Assembly: GCA_019058315.1 (NCBI GenBank)
Contig: JAHPZH010000002.1
Coordinates: 384,001 to 448,000, forward strand
From: Candidatus Helarchaeota archaeon
GTDB lineage: Archaea; Asgardarchaeota; Lokiarchaeia; Helarchaeales; RDOG01
DNA: 64,000 bases
Direction of reading: 5' to 3'
Below, one piece after another: positions 3,197 to 31,501 of this stretch; the stretch's first letter is position 1, and each line of letters opens with the position of its first letter. The position numbers were made by a program, and so were the translations under genes. The notes under the pieces were generated by a model. It was not told the origin of the DNA and did not search any database. It worked only from the letters and a program-made list of their open reading frames with translations.

Positions 3197-4780
3197 TCAT
3201 TCACTCTTTTTTACTATCAATATGAATATAATTGTTGCAACAGCGGCACCGATTCCAATTATCACAAAAATTATAATTGTATCGGGTTCTTGTGCTCCCA
3301 TAATCAGAATTAGAAGTTCCAGCCGATTAGAAGGAGATACTGTACGGGGTTGAAAATATTTATAAAATATATCATTACCTACTCCGGAACCCCCATAATC
3401 AGAATATTCATCCCATGCCACGTGTACTTTCCCAGATCCATCCACCGCAATTGATGGACTATAAGAATGGTTTGTGCTCTCCGTGGAGATTACATCTGTC
3501 GCGTTAACATAGCCATTCCAATTCCCTGAGATGGGGTCCCAGAATTTGTAAAATATATCAAAATACGGCCCCGCACCATCATAGGGTGACCAATCATACC
3601 ATGCCACGTGTACACTCCCGGATCCGTCCACTGCGATTGATGGCTCATAAGAAAGCGATGTACTCTCTGTGGAGACCACGTCGGTTGCATTGATAGTACC
3701 GTTCCATATGCCTGTCGAGGCGTTCCAGAACTTGTAAAATATATCATTCTCTCCTGCACCTGCGCCTCCATAGTCCGTAAAATCATTCCAAACCACATGT
3801 ATATTCCCTAAAAGGTCTACCGCGATCGAAGGTTGGCTAGAATCTAGTGTGCTCTCAGTGGAAACCACACTAGTTGTGCTCCAGGTGCTTGATGTAGCAT
3901 TCCAGAACTTATAAAATATATCATAATCCGTTCCTACTCCGGTATAATTCGTTTGATCATGCCATACCACGTGAACATTCCCAGAACCGTCCACTGCAAG
4001 TGATGGAAGTATAGAATTATTCAAACTCTCTGTGGAAACTACATCAGTCGCAGTAATAGTACCGTTCCATAAGTTTGTTGTGGCGTTCCAGAACTTGTAG
4101 AATATATCATAATCTGTTCCTGAGCCCCCGTAATTCGCATCATCATACCATACTACGTGCACATTCCCAAAACCATCTGCTACGATTTTTGGTCCGTAAG
4201 CACTACCTGTACTTTCCGTGGAGACCACAGTTGTCGTTTTCCAAGTGCTCGTAGTGGCGTTCCATACCTTGTAAAATATATCAAAATCCGTTCCCGCACT
4301 AGTATAATTCGTATTATCAAACCATACTACATGTACATTCCCGGAACTGTCCACAGCAATCGATGGACTATCAGAAGGTCCCGTGCTCTCTGTGGAGACT
4401 ATATCAGTCGCATTAACTCTACCGCTCCATATACCTGAATTGGCATTCCAAAACTTGTAAAATATATCCAAATCCGTTCCCGCACCCCCAATATTTGTAT
4501 AATCCTCCCATACTACATGTACGTTCCCGGCACCGTCCACTGCGATCGACACATCTTTACCACCAACCGCATGCAAGCTCTCCGTGGAGATCACTTCTGT
4601 TGTGGTCCATCCTGATGTAGACATTTTTAATTTAGGCTCATCTTTTAGTGCATTGTTAGATATTGTTACGTAGCTCCAAGATGATGACTGGTTTGTTGTA
4701 TTTGTGTAAATGATAGGAACAATTGCTAGAATAACTAGCATTTGGGCAAGCGTCAAAATACTAATTTTATTTTTGTTCAT
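3197..4780 (-). CDS. Membrane-anchored extracellular 7-bladed beta-propeller (glyco)protein
   Basis: N-terminal hydrophobic signal segment; 7 repeats of PSIAVDGSGNVHVVWxD...DIFYKFWNA; many NxT/S sequons; C-terminal TM helix followed by KKSE. Confidence 0.85.
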   Translation of the reverse strand: MNKNKISILTLAQMLVILAIVPIIYTNTTNQSSSWSYVTISNNALKDEPKLKMSTSGWTTTEVISTESLHAVGGKDVSIAVDGAGNVHVVWEDYTNIGGAGTDLDIFYKFWNANSGIWSGRVNATDIVSTESTGPSDSPSIAVDSSGNVHVVWFDNTNYTSAGTDFDIFYKVWNATTSTWKTTTVVSTESTGSAYGPKIVADGFGNVHVVWYDDANYGGSGTDYDIFYKFWNATTNLWNGTITATDVVSTESLNNSILPSLAVDGSGNVHVVWHDQTNYTGVGTDYDIFYKFWNATSSTWSTTSVVSTESTLDSSQPSIAVDLLGNIHVVWNDFTDYGGAGAGENDIFYKFWNASTGIWNGTINATDVVSTESTSLSYEPSIAVDGSGSVHVAWYDWSPYDGAGPYFDIFYKFWDPISGNWNGYVNATDVISTESTNHSYSPSIAVDGSGKVHVAWDEYSDYGGSGVGNDIFYKYFQPRTVSPSNRLELLILIMGAQEPDTIIIFVIIGIGAAVATIIFILIVKKSE

Positions 4781-5020: not shown

Positions 5021-7036
5021 TTGTTACCAATTAATAAAGTCGTCTTGTTTAAGACGGGAATCGGTTATTTCGAAAGAAAAGATAAAATAGATCTAGCAAA
5101 GAAATCAATAAATTTAAGTTTCAAACGAAAAGTTATGAATGATATATTAGCCACACTTACCATTGCGACGGGAAACAGTTTAGTTACTGGAATAAGTTAT
5201 GAAGGTGCAGAAACTGATCTTCAAAGAGCTCTCGAAGACGCTTTGATTAAGATCCCCAATGAAAACAGTTTTATAACTCTTTTAAAACAGCTGGTGGGAA
5301 GCACTGTCACCTTAAAAATTGTTGGAGAAGTTATAACTGGAATTGTTCTTGGTGTGCAAGAATTGAAAAAAGGAATTGAAAAAGCAATCATCAATGAACC
5401 GTATCTTGTTCTACGTGATATTAGTGGTTCGATTAGGAATATTAAAATTTCTGATCTTACTGGACCAAGTGCCCAATTATCAGTTAGTGATGATAAAATG
5501 AACAAAGAACTTCAATTCTTTATCGAAAAAATGTATACAAGCAAAAAAAAGGACATGAAACCCGTTACAATCTTCTTTGAGGGTGAAGGAAAAGATGATG
5601 TTACCGTATCTTATCTTCATGAGATGCCCAGCTGGAAAGTATCTTATCGTCTAACATTTATCGATGAAGATAATTTCTTACAAGGATGGGCGCTAATAGA
5701 CAATACATTAGATGAAGATTGGGAAAATATTGAACTCAGTTTAATTGCAGGTTTACCTATTTCATTTATTTACGACCTCTATACACCTAACTGGATTCTA
5801 AGACCTACTGTAGCTCGTAAGGATAAATATGACATCCAAGTAACTGAATTTGAGGGTGAACTTGAAGAATTACGCGAAATGAAAGAAGAAGCAAAGAGGC
5901 CAATGGCTCAACCAGCTGCTCCACGACCAATGAAAGCAATGGCTGGGAAAAGGAGAAGTAAGTTTAAAGTAACTGCAAAAGAAAAGATGGTAGCTACGGC
6001 ATCTGATAAGTCTGATGCATTAGATAGGCTAGAATCTACAAAGGTGGAGGCAAAAGGAGAAGAAGCTGGAGATTTTTTTGAATACAAGATAATGGTTCCA
6101 GTTACTGTAAAGCGAAATCAATCTAGCCTTGTTCCAATCTTACAATCAAAGATAACGGGTAAAAAGATGAGCGTTTATAATGAATCAGTTAGAGCCGATA
6201 ATCCAATGTTATGTTGCGAAATTGAGAATGATTCAGGACTTACCTTGGAGGAAGGACCAATCACGGTATATGATGCATCTACATTCATAGGCGAAGCAAT
6301 GCTGCCCTTCGTTAAACAAGGAGAGAAAAGAAGAATTCCTTACTCTGTGGATCTAGGGATAACAGTAAATACAAAAAGGAAAGAAAAATCAGTCGATATA
6401 CATCAAATTAAACTTGGAAAAGATTACCTCTACTCGTTCCAATACTATCTAAAAAAGTGCGAATATCTCGTTAAGAATAAATCTGAAGAAGCTAGAGAAG
6501 TCATCGTCGAACATCCCAAAGAAGATAGATTCGAACTCTATGAAACAGAAAAACCATTTGAAGAGTCTAAGAATTTTTACCGTTATATGGTCAAGGTAGA
6601 TCCAAAAACACAAGCTAAGCTTTTGATTAAAATTAGGCGAGTTGATCGCTCTAGTTGGTACTTTAGCAATGTTTCAAAGTCAGAAATCGATCTTTGGTAT
6701 AAACAGAAATTAATAAATGAAGAAGATAGGGATTTTCTACTAAAAATATGGAAACTTAATACAGAAAAAAATGAAGTCGATAACAAGATTAATGAATTAG
6801 AAAATAAGAAAAACAGTATTATTAATGACCAAAATCGGTTGAGACAAAACCTAAAAAGCATCGGAACAAGTAGGAGTGAAGAACGACTTAGAAACAAATA
6901 TATTACAAAAATGGATGAACAAGAGAATGAATTAGAAAAGATTGAGGCTGAAATCAAAGAATTAACAAAGAAAAGTGAAGAATTAGAACAAAAAATTAAT
7001 GATGAAATTCGAAAACGCCCTGTAGTGGAGGATTAA
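5021..7036 (+). CDS. DUF4139-family protein, subunit A (cassette 1), with C-terminal coiled coil
   Basis: LPINKVVLFKTGIGYFER, SWKVSYRL, GWALIDNTLDEDWENIELSLIAGLP, FFEYKIMVPVTVKRNQSSLVP, TLEEGP, DQNRLRQNL; TTG start with GGAGG SD. Confidence 0.8.
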   Translation: MLPINKVVLFKTGIGYFERKDKIDLAKKSINLSFKRKVMNDILATLTIATGNSLVTGISYEGAETDLQRALEDALIKIPNENSFITLLKQLVGSTVTLKIVGEVITGIVLGVQELKKGIEKAIINEPYLVLRDISGSIRNIKISDLTGPSAQLSVSDDKMNKELQFFIEKMYTSKKKDMKPVTIFFEGEGKDDVTVSYLHEMPSWKVSYRLTFIDEDNFLQGWALIDNTLDEDWENIELSLIAGLPISFIYDLYTPNWILRPTVARKDKYDIQVTEFEGELEELREMKEEAKRPMAQPAAPRPMKAMAGKRRSKFKVTAKEKMVATASDKSDALDRLESTKVEAKGEEAGDFFEYKIMVPVTVKRNQSSLVPILQSKITGKKMSVYNESVRADNPMLCCEIENDSGLTLEEGPITVYDASTFIGEAMLPFVKQGEKRRIPYSVDLGITVNTKRKEKSVDIHQIKLGKDYLYSFQYYLKKCEYLVKNKSEEAREVIVEHPKEDRFELYETEKPFEESKNFYRYMVKVDPKTQAKLLIKIRRVDRSSWYFSNVSKSEIDLWYKQKLINEEDRDFLLKIWKLNTEKNEVDNKINELENKKNSIINDQNRLRQNLKSIGTSRSEERLRNKYITKMDEQENELEKIEAEIKELTKKSEELEQKINDEIRKRPVVED

Positions 7037-10491: not shown

Positions 10492-11532
10492 ATGATAGAA
10501 ATAAAATTTAATAAAAAGGTCACTTTAAAAGAGCACACCATTTTCTCAATAGTATTTTCTCACAATAACCGTTATTTTCTTAATGTTCTCAGCCCGTATT
10601 CTCCTCAGAGTGATTTTATTAATGTTAGGGAGTTAGAAACTGGAAAACTTGTTTGCTCGTTTAAATATGAAAATAGAGTAAAATCAATTGCAGTTTCTTC
10701 TAACATTTTCTATATTTTAAGTGGGTCAGAAGTCTGGGAGTTGGATTCAAGTAGTGCATGGACTCATAATCTAATATGGTCTCAAGGATGTTCTCAAAAT
10801 TTGTGGGGTAATCTTATTGAAATCTCACCTGATGGTCGTTATGTAATAACACAATCTGAGGGTAATACTATTAAGGTTCTAGAGATACGGTCTGGAAAAC
10901 AACTGTTTAAAATTGGAGGACATAGATATCCCATAAAGAAGATAAATGTCTCTCTTGATAATCGCTATATTATGACTACATCCGAAGATAAAACCATGAA
11001 AATTTGGGAATTTAATACAGGTAGATTAGTTCACACTTTAAAAAAGAACCATGATTTTGGTTCGAGTTTATTCTCTTCTGATGGAGGATATTTGATAACT
11101 GTAGCTGACTATAATAACCTCAATGTTTGGGAGCTAGAATCAGGAAATCTCAAACATAATATTAAAGGACATAAGAGTTATATTGACACATTAAATACTT
11201 TTGGAAATTATGTAATATCGGGATCTAGAGATAAAACCATTAAAATTTGGGAATTAACCACTGGTAAATTATTACATACACTTAAAGAACATACTGCTGG
11301 TGTGAGTTCAATCGCAATATCACCCGATGGGCGTTATCTATTTAGTGGATCAATTGATAAGACTGTTAAAGTTTGGGAATTACTCACAGGTAAATTATTA
11401 AAAACACTTGAAGGGCATGATGATTGGATAACTTCAGTTATGGTCTCTCCAAATGGTCGCTATATTATAACTACATCTTCTGCTGGTCCTAATCGTAGTC
11501 AAGAATATATCATCTGGCTGGTCGAATATTGA
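10492..11532 (+). CDS. WD40 repeat protein
   Basis: GH...SGSRDKTIKIWE, SPDGRYLFSGSIDKTVKVWE repeats. Confidence 0.93.
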   Translation: MIEIKFNKKVTLKEHTIFSIVFSHNNRYFLNVLSPYSPQSDFINVRELETGKLVCSFKYENRVKSIAVSSNIFYILSGSEVWELDSSSAWTHNLIWSQGCSQNLWGNLIEISPDGRYVITQSEGNTIKVLEIRSGKQLFKIGGHRYPIKKINVSLDNRYIMTTSEDKTMKIWEFNTGRLVHTLKKNHDFGSSLFSSDGGYLITVADYNNLNVWELESGNLKHNIKGHKSYIDTLNTFGNYVISGSRDKTIKIWELTTGKLLHTLKEHTAGVSSIAISPDGRYLFSGSIDKTVKVWELLTGKLLKTLEGHDDWITSVMVSPNGRYIITTSSAGPNRSQEYIIWLVEY

Positions 11533-20386: not shown

Positions 20387-21670
20387 GTGATATTTTTGCT
20401 TGAAGGATTAGACGACGTTGAATGGGACACTTTAGAGCACGCGTATGGTGAAGCATCCGATGTTCCTGAACAAATTCGAAATTTGGCTTCAAATGATCAA
20501 AAAGTTCGAGATCAAGCTTTATGGGATCTAAATGGAAATATTCTTCACCAAGGTACTCGATATGAGGCATCAGCTTATGCAGTTCCGTTCATATTTGAGA
20601 TATTAAAAGAACCTGGAGCTGGCGATAAAGTAAAACTAATTGAATTTTTGGTGAATTTAGCCCTAGGATATCCCGACTCTTTTTTACCATTCGGTCCAAA
20701 TGTGCAAGGGTGGATAGATGAATATAATTATTGGGTTGAAAGGGCAGAAAAAGAGAGGTTAACCTTTGACGATGAAATGTGGATGACTAACTTAGGGGAT
20801 TTTGTTGAAGTTTATAAGGCAGTACAAAAACAAGTATCTGATTTTTATAGTTTTCTTGATAGTGAAAATGACGATGAACGATTATGGGCCACTTTTACTG
20901 TTGCTTGGTTCCGTGAAGACGCTAAAAGTAGTATACCAAAGGTTCGTAAAGTATTAGATAAAGAGAAATCCGAAAAGAATATAGCAAATGCCATTTTATC
21001 TCTTTCATTGCTAGACTCATATCTTAATGATGTTTCAGATGTTGATTTATTTAAAGAATATTTAGCAGAGGATAATCCTACCCTTGTTAAGACTTCAGCA
21101 GCGATTGCACTTATAAATGTCCTTAAAGAGGGTACAGAAACAAGCGTGTTAAAAAGTTTAGGCGATACATTAATTGAGTTGGCGAAAAAGGATAGTCCTC
21201 CCGGCGATACACATAAGGTAACTGCCTCAGTTGAAAAGGAGGATGGAGAAACTATTAATTTAGGGGTCTATACCTCTGGCGGAAAGGGAGCAGCTTCTGA
21301 ATTTCCTTGGAATGATGGAGATATGGTAGGTTACATATCCAAAATATTGAAAAGTTTTGGAAGAAAAGACCCAGAAAAAATTCTACCTCCATTATGTGAT
21401 GCATTACAATATTTAGATGGTATTCCTGCACTTACAATAACGCAGACTATGTTATGGATAGTGTTTCCAGAACCACCAAAGGGAGATCTTTGGACAACGG
21501 AAGAATTAAATGAAAACCAAAAATTAGTAATACGAGCAATTGCGAATAGTCCTCGTGCTTGGACATACGGTGGACAACCTTTTGGTAATTATCGAATGGA
21601 GATAAGTGGATGGAGACTACCTACTAAATTTGAAGAGTTGAAAAGATTAGCAGGACCTAATAATAAGTAA
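20387..21670 (+). CDS. HEAT-repeat-like protein (true start may be the TTG at 20396)
   Basis: LEGLDDVEWDTLEHAYGEASDVPEQIRNL...ILHQGTRYEASAYAVPF, an N-terminus typical of a widespread bacterial HEAT-repeat family. Confidence 0.7.
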   Translation: MIFLLEGLDDVEWDTLEHAYGEASDVPEQIRNLASNDQKVRDQALWDLNGNILHQGTRYEASAYAVPFIFEILKEPGAGDKVKLIEFLVNLALGYPDSFLPFGPNVQGWIDEYNYWVERAEKERLTFDDEMWMTNLGDFVEVYKAVQKQVSDFYSFLDSENDDERLWATFTVAWFREDAKSSIPKVRKVLDKEKSEKNIANAILSLSLLDSYLNDVSDVDLFKEYLAEDNPTLVKTSAAIALINVLKEGTETSVLKSLGDTLIELAKKDSPPGDTHKVTASVEKEDGETINLGVYTSGGKGAASEFPWNDGDMVGYISKILKSFGRKDPEKILPPLCDALQYLDGIPALTITQTMLWIVFPEPPKGDLWTTEELNENQKLVIRAIANSPRAWTYGGQPFGNYRMEISGWRLPTKFEELKRLAGPNNK

Positions 21671-21693
21671 GTTTTGAGTTTTGGAATTCATCA

Positions 21694-23190
21694 TTATGGA
21701 TTAAACTCTTTTATTTTTTCATTTATTTCGTCTACTCTATTCTTTAATGTTTGTAAATCTCTTAAATTAAATCTAACACTATTTATTCGTTTTTTTATTA
21801 GCTCTAATTCTTCAAGAAGGTTTTTTGTTTTCAGCTTCTTCCAATTCGCAATTACTAATTCTGGTTCACTTCTGTATGTCCAAACGTTATTTGAAAATAT
21901 ATGACCTGCATCAAGATTTAGAATTGTTAATTTTCTCAGGTTTTCGAAATTATTTATTTCTAAAATTTTATTCATTACGAGATATAATTCTTTTAATTTC
22001 GTTAAATTTTCTAGATTCTTAATTTCTGTAATTTGATTATTCTGAAGATTTAATTTTTTTAATTTAGTCAGATTATCTAAATTCTTAATTTCCGTAATTT
22101 GATTTACTTCTAGTATTAATTTTTTTAATTGTGTCAAATTTTCTAAATTCTTAATTTCTTTAATTTGGTTACGACCAAGAAATAATTCTTCAAGTTGTGT
22201 CAGATGTTCTAAATTCTTGATTTCTGAAATTTGATTAGAGTCAAGATATATAGTTTTTAATTTATTTTGGTTTTGCAAATTCTCGATTTCTGAAATTTGA
22301 TTAATTCCAAGAGCTAATAACTGGAGTTGTGTAAGATTTTCTAAATTTTTGATTTTTTTAATTTGATTTGCTTCAATTTTTAATTCTTTTAATTGTTTTA
22401 AATTATCTAAATTCTTAATTTCTGTAATTTTATTTGAATCAATACTTAAAACTTGAAGTTGGGTTAAATTTTCAACATTCTTAATTTCTGTAATTTTATT
22501 TGAATCAAGATTTAAAACTTGAAGTTGTATTAAATTTTCAACATTCTTAATTTCTGTAATTTTATTAATTTGAAGCCATAATTCTTTTAATTTTGATAAC
22601 TTTTCTAAATTCTTTATTTCTGTAATTTTATTATCTTGAAGTATTAATTCTTCTAATTCTGTTAGATTTTCGAGATTCACGATTTCTGTAATTTGATTTA
22701 GACCAAGGTCTAATCGATGAAGTTTGGTTAAATGTCCCAGATTCTTGATTTCATTAATTTGGTTTTCACATAGATCTAATTTCTGAAGTTGAGTAAGATT
22801 TTCGAGATTTTTGATTTCAAAAATTTTATTTACACCAAGATCTAAAACTTTTAGTTGTGTAAGTTTGTCTAAATTCTCGATTTCTGAAATTTTATTTAAA
22901 CCAAGATTAAGTTGTTGAAGTTGCATCAGTTGTTCTAAATTTTTGATTTTCGAAATTTCATTTATTGAAAGATCTAATACTTGGAGTTGCGTTAGATGTT
23001 CCAGATTCTCAATTTCTGAGATGTCATTTCTACTTAGATCTAATACTTGAAGTTGTTTCAGATTCTCTAGATTTTTGATTTTGGTAATATTTTGGATTTG
23101 TAGATCAATAAGTTTCAGAGTTTTTAATCCATTTATTTTTTTAACCTGAAAATTTTTTCCTTTATATCGCACAGACATATTAATTGACAT
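21694..23190 (-). CDS. SDS22-type LRR protein with C-terminal coiled coil
   Basis: About 18 repeats of LxxLxLxxNxIxEIKNLENL. Confidence 0.95.
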   Translation of the reverse strand: MSINMSVRYKGKNFQVKKINGLKTLKLIDLQIQNITKIKNLENLKQLQVLDLSRNDISEIENLEHLTQLQVLDLSINEISKIKNLEQLMQLQQLNLGLNKISEIENLDKLTQLKVLDLGVNKIFEIKNLENLTQLQKLDLCENQINEIKNLGHLTKLHRLDLGLNQITEIVNLENLTELEELILQDNKITEIKNLEKLSKLKELWLQINKITEIKNVENLIQLQVLNLDSNKITEIKNVENLTQLQVLSIDSNKITEIKNLDNLKQLKELKIEANQIKKIKNLENLTQLQLLALGINQISEIENLQNQNKLKTIYLDSNQISEIKNLEHLTQLEELFLGRNQIKEIKNLENLTQLKKLILEVNQITEIKNLDNLTKLKKLNLQNNQITEIKNLENLTKLKELYLVMNKILEINNFENLRKLTILNLDAGHIFSNNVWTYRSEPELVIANWKKLKTKNLLEELELIKKRINSVRFNLRDLQTLKNRVDEINEKIKEFNP

Positions 23191-23221
23191 ATTTTAACCA
23201 ATTTTCACTTTGATCTTGAAA

Positions 23222-24379
23222 TTACATTTCAAGGGATTTTATTTTGTCATTTATTTCCTGAACTTTCGCTTTTAATTTCTCTAAATCTTCTAATTTAATT
23301 CCTGGCATATTCATTTGTGTTTTTATTGACTCTAATTTTTCAACGAGTTCAGCTACTTTAAGATTATTACAATGCTCGATTACTGCTTTTACTCCTTCTT
23401 CATATATTTTTTTATCATTATCTAATAAATAAGATGAAGTTAGAAATAAGGTTTGAAGTTTTGTTAGATTTACTAAATTCTTAATTTCTAAAATCTGATT
23501 TTCATTTAGATTTAATATATAAAGTTCTGTTAGATTATCTAAATTCTTAATTTCTGAGATTTGATTGAACTCAAGAGATAATCTTTCTAATTTAGTCAAA
23601 TTAGCTAAATTCTTCATTTCCGAAATTTGATTATGTCCTAATTCTAAATTTTGCAGTCGTGTTAAATTGTTTAAATTCTTTATTTCTGAGATTTGATTAT
23701 GTCCTAATTCTAAAAATTGCAGTCTTGTTAAATTATCTAAATTCTTAATTTCTGAAATTTGATTATGTCCTAATTCTAAATTTTGTAGTTGTGTTAAAGT
23801 ATCTAAATTCTTAATTTCTGAAATTTGATTATGTCCCAATTCTAAAAATTGTAATCGTGTTAAATTGTCTAAATTCTTAATTTCTGAAATTTGATTTTTG
23901 TCAAGATCTAACCTTTGGAGTTGTATAAGATTATCTAAATTTTTAATCTCTGAAATTTGATTTTCTTGAAGCCATAATTCTTCTAATTTTTTTAGATTAT
24001 CTAAATTACCTATTTCTGAAATCTGATTAGTATTGAGCATTAATATTTGGAGTTGTGGTAGATTATCCAGATTTTTTATTCTCGAAATTTGATTATTACC
24101 AAGATATAAAACTTCTAACTGTGTTAAATTTTCTAAATTCTTGATTTCTGTAATCTGATTTCCACTAAGCTCTAATTTTTTTAGTTTTCTTAGGTTTTCT
24201 AGATTCTCGATTTCTGAAATTTCATTTATTGAAAGATCTAATACTTGGAGTTCTGTTAGATTTTCTAAATTTTTAATTTCTGTAATATCTTGGATTTGTA
24301 AATCAGAAAGATCTAGAATTTTTAACCCATTACTTAAAATTTCAACAGGGTAAGTATTTCCTTCATATTCCACCGACAT
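23222..24379 (-). CDS. SDS22-type LRR protein (tandem paralog of 21694..23190)
   Basis: Same repeat consensus; homologous N-terminus (MSVxYxG...NGLKxLxLxDLQIQ) and C-terminal coil (LEDLEKLKAKVQEINDKIK). Confidence 0.95.
   Translation of the reverse strand: MSVEYEGNTYPVEILSNGLKILDLSDLQIQDITEIKNLENLTELQVLDLSINEISEIENLENLRKLKKLELSGNQITEIKNLENLTQLEVLYLGNNQISRIKNLDNLPQLQILMLNTNQISEIGNLDNLKKLEELWLQENQISEIKNLDNLIQLQRLDLDKNQISEIKNLDNLTRLQFLELGHNQISEIKNLDTLTQLQNLELGHNQISEIKNLDNLTRLQFLELGHNQISEIKNLNNLTRLQNLELGHNQISEMKNLANLTKLERLSLEFNQISEIKNLDNLTELYILNLNENQILEIKNLVNLTKLQTLFLTSSYLLDNDKKIYEEGVKAVIEHCNNLKVAELVEKLESIKTQMNMPGIKLEDLEKLKAKVQEINDKIKSLEM
23590..23900 (-). repeat. Near-identical 66-nt tandem units inside the LRR gene
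   Basis: Four consecutive LELGHNQISE repeats, alternating QFLELG/QNLELG, with the DNA unit ...atttgattatgtcc(t/c)aattctaaa... Confidence 0.85.
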
Positions 24380-24696
24380 ATTCTTTCGACTATCTTCACT
24401 TTGAGATAAAAAAATTTATGATTTATTAGTAAATGTTTGTGAAATTAACTCTTGGGATGGTTTAAAAATCGTTATGTTTCTATCCCAAATAAACTAAATT
24501 TCCTTTAAATTGCGTTTCAAATAATATGGGGAATAAATTCAGTTTACTTTTTGAATTCTGCAGAGAAATCATATAAAATTACACCTTTTTGTTTTATATC
24601 AAGAAGTGTTTATATTCCCCTTACCTTATTAAAATTTATATGTAAGAAAAAGAATGAATTAATATCTCCTTTTTTTTAATTTTAAGAAGGGATATT

Positions 24697-26574
24697 ATGA
24701 GAACCAAAAAAAAAATTATATTAGTTACACAGATTTTTCTTATTTTGACATTATACCTTGTTATTAACACTTCTAAATTTGATATTACTGCTATTTCCTT
24801 GTCTTCAGTCAACGATAAAAGCTTTACCTTAAATACTACTGCAAGCTGGTCCAATGCGACTGCGATTTCAGATGTTTACGGGTGGAACGATGATGGTAGT
24901 GTATATCCAAGCGTCGCTGTGGACAGTAGCGGCAACCTGCACGTGGTCTGGCAAGATTGGACGGACGGTGAGTGGGGATCTGATATAGAAATATTTTACG
25001 TAAACTATACCGCTTCTGGCTGGTCCAACGCCACCGCGATTTCGGACCTTTACGGGTGGAACAATGGTGATAGTTATGATCCAAGCGTCGCCGTGGATGG
25101 TGACGGAAATGTGCATGTGGTCTGGTATGATGACACCAATGGTGAGTGGGGAACTGATCAAGAAATAATGTATGCCAATTACACTGGGTCGGGTTGGTCC
25201 AACGCCACCGCTATTTCCGACCTTTACGGGTGGAACAATGGTGATAGTTATGATCCAAGCGTCGCCGTGGACGGTAACGGTAATGTACACGTGGTTTGGC
25301 ACGATGCTACTAATGGTGAGTGGGGAACTGATCTTGAAATAATGTACACAAACTACACCGCTTCTGGCTGGTCCAACGCCACCGCGATTTCGGACCTTTA
25401 CGGGTGGAACAATGGTGAAAGTTATTGGCCAAGCGTCACCGTGGACGGTAGCGGCAATGTACATGTGGTCTGGAACGATTACACGGCCGGTGGGTGGGGT
25501 GGTGGTGGAAGCGACCCTGAAATATTTTACACAAACTACACCGCTTCTGGCTGGTCCAACGCGACCGCGATTTCGGACCTTTACGGGTGGAACAATGGTG
25601 AAAGTTATAGGCCAAGCGTCGCCGCGGACGGTAGCGGAAACGTACACGTGGTCTGGGAAGATGACACGGACGGTGCGTGGGGAACTGATATAGAAATATT
25701 TTACACAAAATACACCGCTTCTGGTTGGTCCAACCCTATTGCGATTTCCGACCTCTACGGGTGGAACAATGGTGAAAGTTATAGGCCAAGTGTCGCCGCG
25801 GACGGTAGCGGAAACGTGTACGTGGTCTGGCAAGACTTAACCAGTGGTGCGTGGGGAACTGATGATGAAATAATGTATGCAAACTACACTGCAGCGGGTT
25901 GGTCCGATGCCACCGTGATTTCAGACCTTTACGGGTGGAATAATGATTTTAGCGGCGGACCAAGTATCGCAGTGGACGGCACCGGTAATTTACACGTGGT
26001 TTGGCACGATGACACGGACGGTGAGTGGGGAACTGATTATGAAATAATGTACACAATATTAACTGAAAAACCTTCTTCAAGCAACCCGTCTGATATTTTT
26101 ATGTTAACCATGGGTTCAGATACTATTGATTGGGTAATTTGGGATGAATCTGGCATAGGAAAATATCGGGTTTCCGTGTATGATATTATCAACAAAAGTT
26201 ATTATTTATGGGTAAATTGGACTGTATGGACGAATAATACAAATTTAAAAGTCCCTATTAATCGAAGTGTAGAAGGAATATTCAATTATACAATTGAATA
26301 TTATGATTTTTATCATCAATTCGGCATTTCAGACTCAGTTATTGTAACAATAACCGAGTATATTCCCTCTAAAGATGAGCCAATTATAATCGCACCACAA
26401 GGCAGTGGAGATATTTCCAACTTCTTATTATCGCCATTGGGTCTTGGAATTATAGCTGGCGTTGGGGCGATGTTTCTAATATTGGTAGCAGTCGTAATTA
26501 AACTCAATAATACTGTTAAAGAACTTAAAAAAAGTAGTAAATTTTCGACTTCTAAAAAATCAAACGAGAAATAA
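24697..26574 (+). CDS. Membrane-anchored extracellular 7-bladed beta-propeller protein with a following Ig-like/beta domain
   Basis: Signal segment; 7 repeats of WSNATAISDLYGWNNGxSYxPSVAVDGxGNVHVVWxDxTxGEWGTDxEIMY; C-terminal TM and basic tail. Confidence 0.87.
   Translation: MRTKKKIILVTQIFLILTLYLVINTSKFDITAISLSSVNDKSFTLNTTASWSNATAISDVYGWNDDGSVYPSVAVDSSGNLHVVWQDWTDGEWGSDIEIFYVNYTASGWSNATAISDLYGWNNGDSYDPSVAVDGDGNVHVVWYDDTNGEWGTDQEIMYANYTGSGWSNATAISDLYGWNNGDSYDPSVAVDGNGNVHVVWHDATNGEWGTDLEIMYTNYTASGWSNATAISDLYGWNNGESYWPSVTVDGSGNVHVVWNDYTAGGWGGGGSDPEIFYTNYTASGWSNATAISDLYGWNNGESYRPSVAADGSGNVHVVWEDDTDGAWGTDIEIFYTKYTASGWSNPIAISDLYGWNNGESYRPSVAADGSGNVYVVWQDLTSGAWGTDDEIMYANYTAAGWSDATVISDLYGWNNDFSGGPSIAVDGTGNLHVVWHDDTDGEWGTDYEIMYTILTEKPSSSNPSDIFMLTMGSDTIDWVIWDESGIGKYRVSVYDIINKSYYLWVNWTVWTNNTNLKVPINRSVEGIFNYTIEYYDFYHQFGISDSVIVTITEYIPSKDEPIIIAPQGSGDISNFLLSPLGLGIIAGVGAMFLILVAVVIKLNNTVKELKKSSKFSTSKKSNEK
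24845..26055 (+). repeat. Seven GC-rich ~174-nt tandem repeats encoding propeller blades
   Basis: Recurring DNA tggtccaacgccaccgcgatttcggacctttacgggtggaacaatggtga...ccaagcgtcgccgtggacgg. Confidence 0.9.
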
Positions 26575-26831
26575 AAATAATATAACAGATTTTTAAGATA
26601 AGTTAAATTATTATGTAATTTTATAGTTTTTAGACTTTTTTATTTCTTTAGAATAATAATATTTATACGCTCTGCCATTCACTATTTCTATTTATTATAT
26701 CTATAAGAATTTATACGAAAATAATGTAAAAGATACTGAATGAAATAGAGTCTAGAATCTATAGTGTATAATAAGTAAATTTCATTAATTTATTCATTGA
26801 CCAAAGCCTAATAAAAGTGAGATAGGTATAA

Positions 26832-28286
26832 ATGAGTAAAGTAAAATGGGAAACCGAATTAAAAAGAGAACAAATTGAAAAGACTTGTATCAGAATAACC
26901 AGAAATTTGGTTGGGGAAGAAAAGAAAAGAGAATATGATGCATGTATCAATAAATTGAACTCAATCCTAGACAAAAACAGAATTAATGAAGAATTCGAAA
27001 ATCTAAAGCAAGAAGATTATGAAACTAGTTGTCTATCTATAATAGACCAATTGAATGTTAAAAATCCTAATAAATTGAAAAATAATTGTATAAATAAATT
27101 TAAAATTCAAATTAGTGACCCTATTTGGATAGAAAAAATGACTGAATATAAAAAAACTTTTCTATTTAATGAATTAAATGAATTAAATACTATGGTTGAT
27201 TTAGAAAAATATGAACATCAAAATAAGCTATTTATGAAGCAAATATTAGCTAGTGATGTAAAGAAAAACTTACAAATTTACTTTAAAGATATTAAATTGA
27301 AGGATGATCCTGATTTTTTAACGAGAAAAAAATCCATTTCATATAAACTAAATAAAGAATATTTATCAGAAAATATAGAGAAACAAGAAAAACTGAGACT
27401 TTTAGCAACTTATTTATTAACTGATGGGAGTCTATACAAGGATGGCAACAACTACAAATTAGATTTCACTAATAAATCTATTATTCTTATTGAAAAATTC
27501 ATGGATATACTAAAAGAATTTATACCTAATGCGCATTTCAATTTTACAAAACATAAGGTCCCAACAGGAATTAGTTATCAAGTCAAAGTTCCTTCTAATG
27601 AACTAGCTGAGTTATTATTTGAAATTTCACCATCCTACAAGACAAAACCCTATAAAAACCTTTCAGAATGTGAAAATGAATATAAAAAAGAACTTTGTGT
27701 AAAATGGAAGGTGAAAGACAAACAAATGGGATATAAAGAGAAATATTTCGCACCTGCAACTTACCGAAATATAATGGATAAAGTATCTGTTACAGATATT
27801 CTCAGAATAATTTTTGATAATGAAGGTAGTGTTGGTTTAAGCATTCGAAAAGATGGAAGAACAGATAAAAAATTGTCAGTTACTTGTCTACATCCTGGTT
27901 TAGCTGAAGAAATAAGACAAATGTTAATTGCAGTAGGAATTCACACAAATCCAATTCCTGAAAATTATAAAGGAGATTTTGAAATTTTATCTGAATATTA
28001 TGAAACTTTTCGTGATAAAATAGGATTTACTAGAGGAGTAACAAAAGAAAAGGGAAAATATTTAATTGGAAAAAATAAATCTGATATTTTAGATATTTTT
28101 ATTCTAATTTCTTGTATGCAAAAGGATAAGGGACTAATTTTAAAAAATATACCGAATTTAGAAAAAAAACTGGAGTCTATAGTAACCGAATATGAAGAAG
28201 GTGTAAACCAAGGTATTTCTAAAAACTTGTTATTAAAAAAGATTTCAGAAAAGTTAACTATTTTTCAAGATAATCGTAATAAATAG
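26832..28286 (+). CDS. Free-standing double-motif LAGLIDADG endonuclease-like protein
   Basis: Motif 1 LLATYLLTDGSLY followed by LDFTNKS; motif 2 ILRIIFDNEGSVG; later FRDKIGF; no intein splice-junction motifs or host gene. Confidence 0.78.
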   Translation: MSKVKWETELKREQIEKTCIRITRNLVGEEKKREYDACINKLNSILDKNRINEEFENLKQEDYETSCLSIIDQLNVKNPNKLKNNCINKFKIQISDPIWIEKMTEYKKTFLFNELNELNTMVDLEKYEHQNKLFMKQILASDVKKNLQIYFKDIKLKDDPDFLTRKKSISYKLNKEYLSENIEKQEKLRLLATYLLTDGSLYKDGNNYKLDFTNKSIILIEKFMDILKEFIPNAHFNFTKHKVPTGISYQVKVPSNELAELLFEISPSYKTKPYKNLSECENEYKKELCVKWKVKDKQMGYKEKYFAPATYRNIMDKVSVTDILRIIFDNEGSVGLSIRKDGRTDKKLSVTCLHPGLAEEIRQMLIAVGIHTNPIPENYKGDFEILSEYYETFRDKIGFTRGVTKEKGKYLIGKNKSDILDIFILISCMQKDKGLILKNIPNLEKKLESIVTEYEEGVNQGISKNLLLKKISEKLTIFQDNRNK

Positions 28287-28294
28287 AAAAAGAG

Positions 28295-28477
28295 TGGGAC
28301 CGCCGGGCTTCGATCCCGGGACTTTACCCATGAGAGACGTTTATTCTCTCATTTCTGGCTTTCTCCGAGGAGAATTGTAAAGAGAGTGGTCAAGCTCTGA
28401 AATACAATTGTAAATCTTATAAGGCCAGCACTCTTTTTGGGAAGTTTTAGACTCTAACCAAGCTGAGTCACGGTCCC
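28295..28477 (-). tRNA. tRNA-Ile(UAU) with three introns (20a/21: 28435-28455; 37/38: 28361-28417; 44/45: 28324-28353)
   Basis: Removing three BHB-like introns gives a 75-nt cloverleaf: GGGACCG UG ACUC AGCUUGGUUA GAGU G CUGGC CUUAUAA GCCAG AAGUC CCGGG AUCGAAG CCCGG CGGUCCC A, with all four stems fully paired. Confidence 0.85.
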
Positions 28478-28534: not shown

Positions 28535-31501
28535 TTATTTTTCCGATTTTTTGAAATAGAATTGAATATCCACGTTTTCTATTGACAATTTACCCGAAAC
28601 GAAACCTTTTTTGACTTTATCTGGAGCTGATTTTACTATTTGAATTGTTTGAGCTCTTGTAATTGAAGTTATCATATCCTGAAACGTTGTTAATTTATCT
28701 AAAACGTCTTTATCATTACAAACCACTATTAATTCTATAGTTTCCTTCACATGGAATTTGTTTTTCTTCCGATTTTGCTGAATATGTCTTGTTAGCTCCC
28801 TGACCATATGTTCTGCTTTTAGTTCATCTTTTACTTCAGTTTCGAGTCCAACTGAGCACTTAGGTCGTTCTTTGAATTTTATTGTCTTCTTTTTCGGGGC
28901 TGATTTTACAACCTCTGTAGTTTTTACATTCGCTTGATTATTTATTATATCTAATAAGTTATCAATTTTATTCATTTTTTCCTTGGGAACAATTATTGCC
29001 TTAAGCAAAGGATAACGTAGTTTTATTCCTTCTTCTTGGCGAATGGATAAAAGAGATTCCACAATATGTTTAACCAGTTCCATTGATTCTTCCAATTCAG
29101 GTTTAATAAGTTTGGTATTTGTTTTTGGCCATTTAAGTAATTGGATGCTTTCTGGAGTTTTAGTTTCAGCAGGTCGAACTAAATGTTGGTAGAGTTCTTC
29201 AGATAAAAATGGTATGGCGGGTGTACTAAGTACGATAAGAGTACGGAGGACTTCATATAACGTTGCCATAGCTGCAGAATCTTGATTATTTATACGATCT
29301 CTGATTATTCTCACGTACCAATGACTAAGGTCGCTCATATAAAAATCCTGTAATAATTTCGGAATTTTTGGTAAATTATACGTTTCAAACTCTTCTGTCA
29401 CGTTTTTGATTAAAGAATTTAATCTTGAAAGAAGCCAAGTATCTTCAATTTGAAGTTTCATTTTACTAAGATTATGTTTTGTTGGATCAAAGTCTGCAAT
29501 TTTTAGAAACGTAGTAGCATAAACATAGACATTATATATAACATTTAGCATACGATGAGCATCTTTTAATTCAGTCCATACGAATTTCATATCTTCTCCG
29601 GGTGCTGTTGATTTAACGGAATAGAATCTGAAAGCTTCTGAGCCATACTTTTCTATTACTTCTTCTGGTGCTACGACATTTCCTATAGATTTACTCATAG
29701 GTCGTCCTTCTTCATCCATTGTAAATCCATGCATATATACTGCCTCGTAAGGACGAGTTTCTGACGATACAATACTCGAAGACATCAAAGTATTAAACCA
29801 ACCACGAATTTGGTCCTTTCCTTCTAATATGAAATCTGCTTTTTTCCAGTTATCAAAGTCATTTTTTCCATAAACAACCATATTTGTAGACCACATACCG
29901 GATCCTGAATCTAACCAAACATCCAATACATCTGGAATTCGTTTTTTAGTTCCACCGCATTTGCATTTCCAAGTAACTTCGTCTATCCAAGGTCTGTGGA
30001 GATCTTCAGGAACTTTATTAGAAAGCTTCTTCAGTTCATCTACTGACCCTATAATTGTAACATCGTCACATTTATCACATTCCCAAATTGGCAGCGGAGT
30101 TCCCCAATATCTTTGACGGGAAATACACCAGTCCCAAAGATTCGAAATCCAGTTGTGAAACCAACCACCTGCCCATTGAGGTTGCCAATAGACTTTTTTA
30201 TTTTCACTTATCATGAGTTCATGCAGTACACTCATTTTAAAGAACCACTGTTCAATATTTCGATAGATGAGTGGTGTTTTACACCTCCAGCAGTGAGCAT
30301 ACTCATGTTTTAATGTACCTAGATTTAACAATGTTCCTTTTTTCTTCAAATCATCCAATATTTTTTTGTTTGCATCTTTAACATAGAGTCCTTTGTATTT
30401 TCCTCCTTCTTCGGTAAAGTTCCCTGCAGAATCAAGAGGTGAAAAAGCTGGCACTTTGTATTTTAAACCAACTATGTAATCCTCTTGTCCATGCCCAGGA
30501 GCAGAATGAACTAATCCAGTGCCTCCTTTATCTACAGTAACATATTCTTCAGATAAAATAACTGTATGAACATTTGGATTTCCTTTTTCATATTCTAAAT
30601 TTTTAGGAACTTCTTCAGCTAATGGAGGAATGTATTTTAATCCTTCTAATTTTTCTCCTAAAAATTCTTCAATTATTTTAAAATCTTTGCCCAATAATCC
30701 TTGAATTACTGCTGTAGACAATGCTTTAGAAATTATCCAGACTTCATTACCAACTTTCGCTCGAATGTAGTTATATGTAGGATTCACCATAACTGCTAAA
30801 TTAGCAGGAAGTGTCCAAGGCGTTGTTGTAAATATTAGTAAATACTCATTTTTTTTATCTTTCACCTTAAATTTTAGAAATAAGGAGATATCTTCAATAT
30901 TATAATATTCAAATTCATGTTTAGCAAGCGCCGTTTCACATCTAGGGCATGTATTTAACGGTCGAGCACCTTTATACAAGTATCCATTATCCCATGCCTT
31001 TCGAATAGCCCACCATATTCCTTCTATATAGCTATTAAAGACTGTTTCGTAAGGATGTTCCCAATCATAAAAGCACGCCAGCCTTTTAAACTGTTCATTC
31101 ATTTTCCATAAATTTGTTTCTGCAAATTCACGACATTTTTTAATAAAATTTTCTAGACCAAATGCTTCTATTTCCTTTTTATTAGATATTTCTAATTCTT
31201 TTTCCATTAAAACTTCAATAGGTAATCCGTGCATATCATATCCTGGATTTACTTTTACATAATGACCTGTCATGCTTTTATAGCGGAGTACATAATCTTT
31301 CAAGACCTTATTCCAAGCAGTACCTAAGTGAATTGCTCCTGTTGTATAGGGAGGACCGTCAATAAATTTCCATTCAGGATCATTTTGTTCCAAATTCTTT
31401 TTCCAAATTTTTTCGAAGATTTTATTCTTTTCCCAGAATTTTAGAATTTTATCTTCCATCTCTTTAAATACAATTTTTTTTGGCAGTTCTTTTATTGGCA
31501 T
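28535..31501 (-). CDS. ileS: Isoleucyl-tRNA synthetase (archaeal/eukaryal type)
   Basis: DGPPYTTGAIHLGT (HIGH), GYDMHGLPIE, TTTPWTLPAN, GTGLVHSAPGHG, WCISRQRYWG, EGKDQIRGWF, PMSKS. Confidence 0.97.
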   Translation of the reverse strand: MPIKELPKKIVFKEMEDKILKFWEKNKIFEKIWKKNLEQNDPEWKFIDGPPYTTGAIHLGTAWNKVLKDYVLRYKSMTGHYVKVNPGYDMHGLPIEVLMEKELEISNKKEIEAFGLENFIKKCREFAETNLWKMNEQFKRLACFYDWEHPYETVFNSYIEGIWWAIRKAWDNGYLYKGARPLNTCPRCETALAKHEFEYYNIEDISLFLKFKVKDKKNEYLLIFTTTPWTLPANLAVMVNPTYNYIRAKVGNEVWIISKALSTAVIQGLLGKDFKIIEEFLGEKLEGLKYIPPLAEEVPKNLEYEKGNPNVHTVILSEEYVTVDKGGTGLVHSAPGHGQEDYIVGLKYKVPAFSPLDSAGNFTEEGGKYKGLYVKDANKKILDDLKKKGTLLNLGTLKHEYAHCWRCKTPLIYRNIEQWFFKMSVLHELMISENKKVYWQPQWAGGWFHNWISNLWDWCISRQRYWGTPLPIWECDKCDDVTIIGSVDELKKLSNKVPEDLHRPWIDEVTWKCKCGGTKKRIPDVLDVWLDSGSGMWSTNMVVYGKNDFDNWKKADFILEGKDQIRGWFNTLMSSSIVSSETRPYEAVYMHGFTMDEEGRPMSKSIGNVVAPEEVIEKYGSEAFRFYSVKSTAPGEDMKFVWTELKDAHRMLNVIYNVYVYATTFLKIADFDPTKHNLSKMKLQIEDTWLLSRLNSLIKNVTEEFETYNLPKIPKLLQDFYMSDLSHWYVRIIRDRINNQDSAAMATLYEVLRTLIVLSTPAIPFLSEELYQHLVRPAETKTPESIQLLKWPKTNTKLIKPELEESMELVKHIVESLLSIRQEEGIKLRYPLLKAIIVPKEKMNKIDNLLDIINNQANVKTTEVVKSAPKKKTIKFKERPKCSVGLETEVKDELKAEHMVRELTRHIQQNRKKNKFHVKETIELIVVCNDKDVLDKLTTFQDMITSITRAQTIQIVKSAPDKVKKGFVSGKLSIENVDIQFYFKKSEK

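Follow-up and report, generated by a model that had tools for sequence, protein, structure and literature searches.

Here, we identify P0001, a free-standing LAGLIDADG protein of 484 amino acids (aa), as what is on balance probably a selfish homing endonuclease of rRNA-intron descent that has lodged at the flank of a tRNA-Ile gene. The gene lies in a 64,000-nucleotide (nt) stretch of a Candidatus Helarchaeota genome (contig JAHPZH010000002.1, positions 384,001 to 448,000; hereafter the window), where only 8 nt lie between its stop codon and the 3' end of a tRNA-Ile(UAU) gene in convergent orientation. We observe a LAGLIDADG fold with conserved acidic residues, kinship of the nuclease core with rRNA-intron endonucleases, a lineage-specific insertion of the gene at the tRNA end, and an enrichment of LAGLIDADG genes at tRNA flanks. 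The gene and its parts are as follows.

26832..28286, plus strand: free-standing, predicted LAGLIDADG endonuclease gene (P0001), 484 aa (open reading frame [ORF] listing; PF14528; AlphaFold2; Foldseek)
26832..27326, plus strand: N-terminal helical domain, aa 1 to about 165, family-specific (conserved in P0002, P0003, P0004, P0006, P0007, P0009 and P0016)
27399..27431, plus strand: LAGLIDADG motif 1, LLATYLLTDGS, aa 190-200, with the D198 codon at 27423-27425 ((T/S)DG in 8/8 long homologs covering the region)
27798..27830, plus strand: LAGLIDADG motif 2, ILRIIFDNEGS, aa 323-333, with the E331 codon at 27822-27824 (E331 and G332 invariant in the family alignment)
28077..28283, plus strand: C-terminal three-helix tail, aa 416-484 (DSSP; homolog alignment; Pfam of homologs)

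P0001 has the single-chain, two-motif LAGLIDADG architecture, in which both helices and the acid at the end of each motif are present. The protein matches the Pfam family LAGLIDADG_3 (PF14528) in two stretches (E=1.2e-7), a scan against NCBIfam gave it no name, and the alignment of all long homologs, which are 26-41% identical, retains both acids (D198 and E331). The AlphaFold2 model, built from 52 aligned sequences, has a mean predicted local distance difference test score (pLDDT) of 92.9 and a predicted template modelling score (pTM) of 0.92. It consists of seven N-terminal helices followed by two alpha-beta-beta-alpha-beta-beta-alpha units, which DSSP assigns, with H for helix and E for strand, to H182-196/E199-204/E207-214/H217-227/E237-243/E246-254/H256-263 (unit 1) and H320-331/E332-338/E344-350/H355-367/E372-374/E383-385/H387-396 (unit 2). 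When the model was compared with the PDB by Foldseek, I-DmoI and I-Tsp061I came out on top (probability 1.0, TM 0.54-0.68 normalised by target), with I-SceI, the I-OnuI family, the bI3 maturase and WhiA at lower ranks. At the sequence level, a narrow core profile returned zero matches in the PDB, and a broad profile returned only weak matches to I-DmoI and inteins, plus winged-helix matches. Altogether, sequence and model suggest that P0001 is probably a monomeric, two-domain LAGLIDADG DNA endonuclease that is catalytically competent.

A first-pass annotation of the window, made from the letters alone, had already described two LAGLIDADG-like helices with catalytic acids, and the Pfam match, the AlphaFold2 model and the conservation of D198/E331 bear this description out; structure prediction, the check that it had proposed, recovers the LAGLIDADG fold at the pLDDT and Foldseek probability given above. 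Its placement of the gene outside any intron or intein is likewise correct. On one side, the gene is bordered by a 257-nt intergenic spacer and on the other by the 8-nt spacer to the convergent tRNA, which the annotation had also noted and which the coordinates confirm; there is no flanking host protein or extein, and the start of P0001 agrees with the N-termini of its homologs P0004, P0006 and P0009. The end coordinate originally given, 28477, takes in the tRNA; the ORF itself ends at 28286.

P0001 differs from its structural neighbors by the N-terminal ~180 aa, which are entirely helical by AlphaFold2 and DSSP and for which the first 182 residues, modelled separately, reach a pLDDT of 82.6. 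This domain is common to all long relatives of P0001. Compared with 48,161 PDB chains, it found only generic helical hairpins (best Z 5.9); the best TM in an Atlas fold search was ≤0.35, an Atlas feature search gave no usable match, and neither Pfam nor NCBIfam matched. The first-pass annotation had pointed to a helical extension with several Cys residues. The helical character holds throughout and there are four Cys (positions 19, 38, 67 and 86); however, C86 is the only one that is invariant in the family. Because only C86 is invariant and there are no CxxC pairs, the domain is unlike a zinc finger. At the other end of the protein, most long homologs extend past the region of the P0001 tail into one or two winged-helix domains of the ArsR, TrmB or MarR type (P0002, P0004, P0006, P0007, P0008 and P0009). 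P0001 ends there, and Pfam detects no winged helix or helix-turn-helix (HTH) in either P0001 or P0003.

The core of P0001 (aa ~165-460) shares homology with endonucleases whose ORFs lie within Asgard 23S and 16S rRNA genes. A profile search of 400 Asgard genomes returned three family matches, two in the source genome and one in genome G307. The latter is a 298-aa ORF within an Rfam large-subunit (LSU) rRNA match, i.e., a 23S gene, on a contig of Candidatus Borrarchaeum weybense, and it is 32% identical to P0001 residues 165-451 (E 1e-28). Among the metagenomic relatives of the core, which were found with a 5-sequence core alignment, four of eight lie in or beside rRNA genes: the ORF at locus L040 is inside an LSU match, that at L046 is inside a small-subunit (SSU) match, that at L039 overlaps an LSU match and that at L045 lies 155 nt past an SSU match. 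Because relatives of the core are located at rRNA genes, we assign it to the clade of archaeal rRNA-intron homing endonucleases; its form in the long free-standing proteins is, as judged from sequence, a derived one. The 23S and 16S rRNA genes at L019 (Candidatus Borrarchaeum weybense), L040 and L046 are interrupted by LAGLIDADG ORFs, and Rfam at the gathering threshold reports no group I intron match on these three loci.

The position of the gene was compared with the same locus in relatives, for which the features on the tRNA side and the inserted block are needed.

28287..28294, no strand: 8-nt spacer from the ORF stop codon to the tRNA 3' end (junction sequence)
28295..28477, minus strand: tRNA-Ile(UAU) with three inserts, convergent with P0001 (spliced form called by ARAGORN)
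28455-28435, minus strand: D-loop insert of tRNA-Ile, 21 nt
28417-28361, minus strand: 37/38 insert of tRNA-Ile, 57 nt
28353-28324, minus strand: variable-loop insert of tRNA-Ile, 30 nt
28535..31501, minus strand: ileS, directly upstream of the tRNA on the same strand (TIGR00392, 6e-269)
21671..28294, no strand: lineage-specific 6.6-kb block with two leucine-rich repeat (LRR) genes (498 and 385 aa), an SBBP beta-propeller gene (625 aa) and the LAGLIDADG gene (tblastn synteny; junctions)

The order ileS then tRNA-Ile(UAU) on the same strand is found at seven Helarchaeales loci (the window, L010, L047-L050 and L085), with a gap of 57 nt in the window; the closer relatives were found by a search with isoleucyl-tRNA synthetase (IleRS), beyond the species-representative set. 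IleRS identity to the window is 91% for L047, 82% for L048 and L049, 80% for L050 and 76% for L085. L047-L050 share with the window two GT2 genes, ileS, a prenyltransferase gene, a 190-aa gene and a DUF4139 pair, and L085 keeps the prenyltransferase gene beyond the tRNA but not the wider flank. At this conserved locus, P0001 shows a presence/absence polymorphism, being present in the window and absent from L047-L050 and L085: tblastn with nine family proteins against L010 and L047-L050 detected neither a gene nor a remnant (best E 0.25), and the gene list of L085 contains no LAGLIDADG gene. In the IleRS tree, where the window groups with L047, and L048/L049 with L050, the P0001 gene calls for a single gain in the lineage of the window.

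What was gained is more than one gene. In L047, a HEAT-repeat gene ends ~50 nt from the tRNA 3' end, and this short spacer takes the place of the 6.6-kb block; the HEAT-repeat gene of the window (427 aa, 20387-21670) is 88% identical to its L047 counterpart. The 424-aa tRNA neighbor in L047 had been considered as a LAGLIDADG protein and was rejected, as it is the ortholog of this HEAT-repeat gene. Within the block, the SBBP gene was named by Pfam and the LRR genes by their repeat sequence. The block contains no integrase gene; the 23-nt tRNA 3' end does not recur in the window with ≤3 mismatches, a duplicated T-arm plus acceptor segment is absent within 12 kb, and local alignments for a decayed tRNA-Ile half in the block scored below shuffled sequence. 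The SBBP gene (24697-26574, 625 aa) is built of seven ~174-nt units and has ~40% G+C as compared to ~30% for the genome.

The tRNA gene itself was missed in its unspliced form by ARAGORN and Rfam; with the inserts removed, ARAGORN calls a 75-nt tRNA-Ile(tat). We aligned seven tRNA-Ile(UAU) alleles, i.e., that of the window and six ORF-less ones (L047, L048, L049, L050, L085 and G001). The D-loop and 37/38 inserts are present in 7/7 alleles and thus in all six that lack the ORF; by parsimony, the gene therefore arrived after them. The 30-nt variable-loop insert of the window has a homologous 29-nt counterpart, with compensatory hairpin changes, in the ORF-less L050 and is precisely absent from L047, L048, L049, L085 and G001, which on the IleRS tree corresponds to two gains or to one gain and two losses. 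From these comparisons, no intron is specific to the gene-bearing allele, and two of the three introns clearly predate the gene. The window and its closest relative L047 have an identical mature tRNA-Ile, and their 37/38 introns differ at 2/57 positions; L047 lacks both the gene and the variable-loop intron, a co-occurrence that consists of one genome pair. Among the Helarchaeales alleles, the introns of this one orthologous tRNA-Ile turn over quickly, and there is an extra 30-nt D-loop insert in L047 (about 5199-5228) and a 31-nt T-loop insert in G001 (L010, about 4680-4710).

P0001 is not the only LAGLIDADG gene beside a tRNA gene in its genome. We considered 4189 ORFs of ≥150 aa and 41 tRNAs detected with RF00005 and a custom scan. 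Roughly half of these tRNAs form a single array on contig C3; standard tools probably miss many dispersed tRNA genes because these are too heavily interrupted. Seven ORFs match PF14528. Only two ORFs of ≥150 aa end convergently ≤20 nt from a tRNA 3' end, and both encode LAGLIDADG proteins, which belong to unrelated subfamilies. Of the LAGLIDADG ORFs, 3/7 have a tRNA at a distance of ≤500 nt, versus 26/4189 of all ORFs (hypergeometric P~7e-6), and it is unlikely that the position of P0001 against the tRNA is a chance event. The second convergent gene, P0174, opens contig C10, encodes 619 aa and stops 17 nt from the 3' end of tRNA-Val(UAC), and its paralog P0175 lies 410 nt from tRNA-Ser(GCU). 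These two proteins have LAGLIDADG_1/_3 domains and a C-terminal HTH and no significant similarity to P0001. Genes of the P0175 type are multi-copy in the Lokiarchaeia family f4 (72/135 genomes), many copies containing stop codons. In 10/30 fetched loci of this second subfamily, a tRNA lies 49-377 nt from the open frame, mostly in a Ser(GCU)/Val(UAC)/Ser(UGA)/Thr cluster (loci L056-L084, L055), and in the family-f4 loci the neighboring Ser(GCU) and Val(UAC) genes are intron-less. A tRNA-flank position seems to be typical of free-standing LAGLIDADG genes in Lokiarchaeia, independently of introns.

P0174 (C10:3-1862, L051) and P0002 (C3:1480109-1484684, L018/L002), a paralog of P0001, have in common a coiled-coil N-terminus of ~300 aa that is ~88% identical by reading the translations, and they carry LAGLIDADG modules of different subfamilies. 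Both lie at contig ends, presumably where repeats broke the assembly. The palindrome TTTGCGCAAA or a near variant occurs upstream of P0175 (L051, about 11200-11330) and of a 631-aa ORF on contig C6 (L054, about 5330-5400). In or beside the 20-gene tRNA array of C3 (C3:622670-630637, L086), duplicated tRNA 3' halves bracket two elements: one of 843 bp with a 219-aa HTH gene (repeat of the tRNA-Met 3' half, 1/24 mismatch) and one of 4.8 kb encoding a 1575-aa fn3/Ig protein (repeat of the tRNA-Asn 3' half, 0/24 mismatches). The 219-aa gene between the tRNA-iMet repeats was tried as a LAGLIDADG gene and rejected, because Pfam gives HTH only.

An exhaustive search of 1.84 billion representative proteins (E≤1e-3) yielded 51 matches, about eight of which align beyond the LAGLIDADG core. 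For the ten matches that were looked up, the 90%-identity clusters hold one or two sequences each. Five relatives are long and full-length (P0003, P0004, P0006, P0007 and P0009; 662-860 aa, 30-40% identity), with P0009 coming from a metagenome-assembled genome of a Candidatus Helarchaeota; the genome's own paralog, P0002 on contig C3, exceeds 1047 aa and runs off the contig end. A query with P0001 of 60 same-class relatives gave zero matches. According to these searches, the family is very rare, patchy and Asgard-only. In a genome of the same order, a tRNA-Lys gene is located ~600 nt from a distant relative (24% identity, E 3e-8). LRR genes adjoin both P0001 and its closest homolog P0003; this candidate for a shared context was dropped because LRR matches number in the hundreds genome-wide.

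We infer that P0001 has nuclease activity and a target site and that it homes, and suggest the following course of events. The nuclease core would have left an rRNA intron and acquired the N-terminal helical domain, and most members would have acquired the C-terminal winged helices as well. The P0001 gene would have entered the short spacer behind tRNA-Ile(UAU), alone or together with neighboring cargo. The enzyme would then cut gene-less chromosomes at or near the empty site, formed by the conserved 3' part of the tRNA and the spacer, and repair from the gene-bearing copy would bring in the gene plus flanking DNA. We propose that the insertion disrupts the target site of the enzyme and that an intron would therefore be unnecessary for self-protection.

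Several observations weigh against a selfish element that homes to the tRNA flank. The contexts of the six other long family members are unrelated and free of tRNAs: the neighbors are LRR genes, Roadblock and Maf genes, a flavin adenine dinucleotide (FAD) oxidase gene, ParA and glycosidase genes, diaminopimelate (DAP) epimerase and Arf-type GTPase genes, and a contig end, and no tRNA was found beside any of the six by ARAGORN, an Rfam E-value scan or a scan for G+C peaks, which does pick up the window's own tRNA-Ile. Homologs beside tRNAs were what the first-pass annotation had put forward for a comparison across genomes, and no other long member adjoins one. The insertion is 6.6 kb with three unrelated cargo genes rather than a clean single gene. 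Relatives hold other cargo at the same spot (genes for 527 and 226 aa in L048 and for 152 aa in L050), and L085 has a HEPN-MNT pair inserted between ileS and the tRNA; the spot may therefore simply be a hotspot. (Kinship of the 527-aa protein with the coiled-coil stalk of P0002 was considered and rejected; the two are unrelated.) P0001, without winged helices, could be a truncated, decaying form, and the conserved extra domains of the family could indicate a host function. Finally, the enrichment test was post hoc and used 41 tRNAs with incomplete detection, and two of its three tRNA-linked genes are paralogs 9 kb apart.

These points lend themselves to other explanations. P0001 might be passive cargo of a variable island beside the tRNA, an inactive or decaying gene whose position reflects a recombination hotspot and not a target. 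The different cargo of L048, L050 and L085 would fit such an island, as would the nuclease-free cargo that duplicated tRNA 3' halves bracket elsewhere in the genome, e.g., the 1575-aa fn3/Ig protein, and the C-terminal domains of its relatives that P0001 lacks. However, the frame of 484 codons is uninterrupted and retains all core motifs, the locus has neither an integrase nor a duplicated tRNA half, and a hotspot alone leaves unexplained why both ORFs that abut a tRNA 3' end are LAGLIDADG genes, and we consider passive carriage unlikely. It is more doubtful still that P0001 has been domesticated as HO and WhiA were, i.e., has become a site-specific host nuclease or a DNA-binding regulator in which the extra domains serve the cell. 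A multi-domain architecture that is conserved among members only 26-41% identical, homologs whose neighbors are ordinary chromosomal genes (e.g., Roadblock, Arf-type GTPase and ParA) and a model that confidently fixes the N-terminal domain relative to the core (pTM 0.92) are what domestication might produce. By contrast, an ortholog is missing from the 60 same-class relatives and from the five syntenic close relatives, contexts vary between members, and P0001 keeps the catalytic acids, unlike WhiA, and has no HTH. The WhiA-like regulator that the first-pass annotation had offered as its alternative runs into the same facts: retained acids, no HTH and zero orthologs in 60 relatives.

The same annotation had suggested that the gene and the tRNA introns spread together. 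In such collaborative homing, the enzyme would cut intron-less tRNA-Ile at the intron site, the resident intron would protect the host copy, and repair would spread intron and gene. In favor of such a scenario, exon 4 (29 nt) and the 8-nt spacer together put the gene 37 nt from the site of the variable-loop intron, and L047, whose mature tRNA is identical, lacks both gene and intron. The intron occurs in two non-sister lineages, the window and L050, and is absent from both outgroups; for this distribution on the IleRS tree, a history with two gains is no less parsimonious than one with a single gain and two losses. In addition, a preprint describes how Asgard tRNA introns arrive as an unsettled question (10.64898/2026.10.13.758758). 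Nevertheless, we regard collaborative homing as very unlikely. All six ORF-less alleles carry the D-loop and 37/38 introns, and L050 carries the variable-loop intron without a remnant of the gene; the divergence of this copy, including the compensatory hairpin changes, suggests an age similar to that of the other introns. These findings undercut the proposed link to intron homing. Moreover, the other long family members are not beside tRNAs, the Ser(GCU) and Val(UAC) genes next to the second LAGLIDADG family in the f4 loci have no introns, and gene and intron co-occur in one genome pair. Equally improbable, in our view, is a variant in which P0001 cuts gene-less tRNA-Ile within or behind its 3' half, e.g., at an intron-free variable loop/T-arm, and repair copies the gene, the variable-loop intron and the cargo.

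Asgard tRNA genes have been reported to contain ~2.2 inserts each, with no tested arrival route explaining them, and the mobile-element test of that study does not mention homing endonucleases (10.64898/2026.10.13.758758). In our literature search, we found no paper on tRNA-flanking LAGLIDADG genes in archaea. The present data show an accumulation of free-standing LAGLIDADG genes, from two subfamilies or more, at the tRNA flanks of Lokiarchaeia, and they define an Asgard-specific LAGLIDADG architecture with a new N-terminal domain, an rRNA-intron-type core and, usually, winged helices. If it were true that homing of the P0001 type carries the variable-loop intron along, LAGLIDADG genes at tRNA flanks would be one route by which bulge-helix-bulge (BHB) introns spread among Asgard tRNAs. 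As a pair in which the mature tRNA is identical, one intron differs each way and a 6.6-kb block brings an intact endonuclease gene, the window and L047 provide a concrete test substrate. As a compact new single-chain LAGLIDADG scaffold with a long predicted target, P0001 could possibly also be of use as a meganuclease.

Among known systems, P0001 is closest in structure to I-DmoI and I-Tsp061I, monomeric enzymes of archaeal rRNA introns with which it shares the two-domain single-chain fold and one acid per motif. It differs from these solved enzymes in being free-standing, in its extra ~180-aa N-terminal helical domain and C-terminal helical tail, and in sequence, being only 14-17% identical to them. 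WhiA and yeast HO also combine a LAGLIDADG core with extra DNA-binding domains, reminiscent of the winged helices of the P0001 paralogs; however, WhiA has lost the catalytic residues and its synteny is conserved, whereas the P0001 family has kept both acids and is extremely patchy, and P0001 itself has no HTH. In a model of tRNA disruption and intron gain, integrases insert DNA at tRNA 3' ends (PMC3293823). As in that model, foreign DNA sits exactly at a tRNA 3' end and introns vary among close relatives, but the P0001 locus has no integrase and no duplicated tRNA fragment. Collaborative homing has been described for F-CphI with psbA and for mobE with I-TevIII (PMC2790892, PMC6083498). In these cases, as here, a free-standing nuclease gene lies beside a gene with ORF-less introns; those are group I introns with demonstrated cleavage at the intron site, whereas here short BHB tRNA introns predate the gene and occur without it. 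Phage T4 encodes the free-standing endonuclease SegB amid a cluster of tRNA genes, and the conserved tRNA T-arm motif is part of the 27-bp SegB site (PMC2330249). Like the P0001 gene, segB is lodged at tRNAs, and gene-less relatives retain the homologous tRNA region. SegB is a phage-encoded GIY-YIG enzyme and P0001 a LAGLIDADG protein of an archaeal chromosome, so that the likeness is one of function by analogy only; by this analogy, the SegB site may serve as a model for how a tRNA flank becomes the target of an endonuclease.

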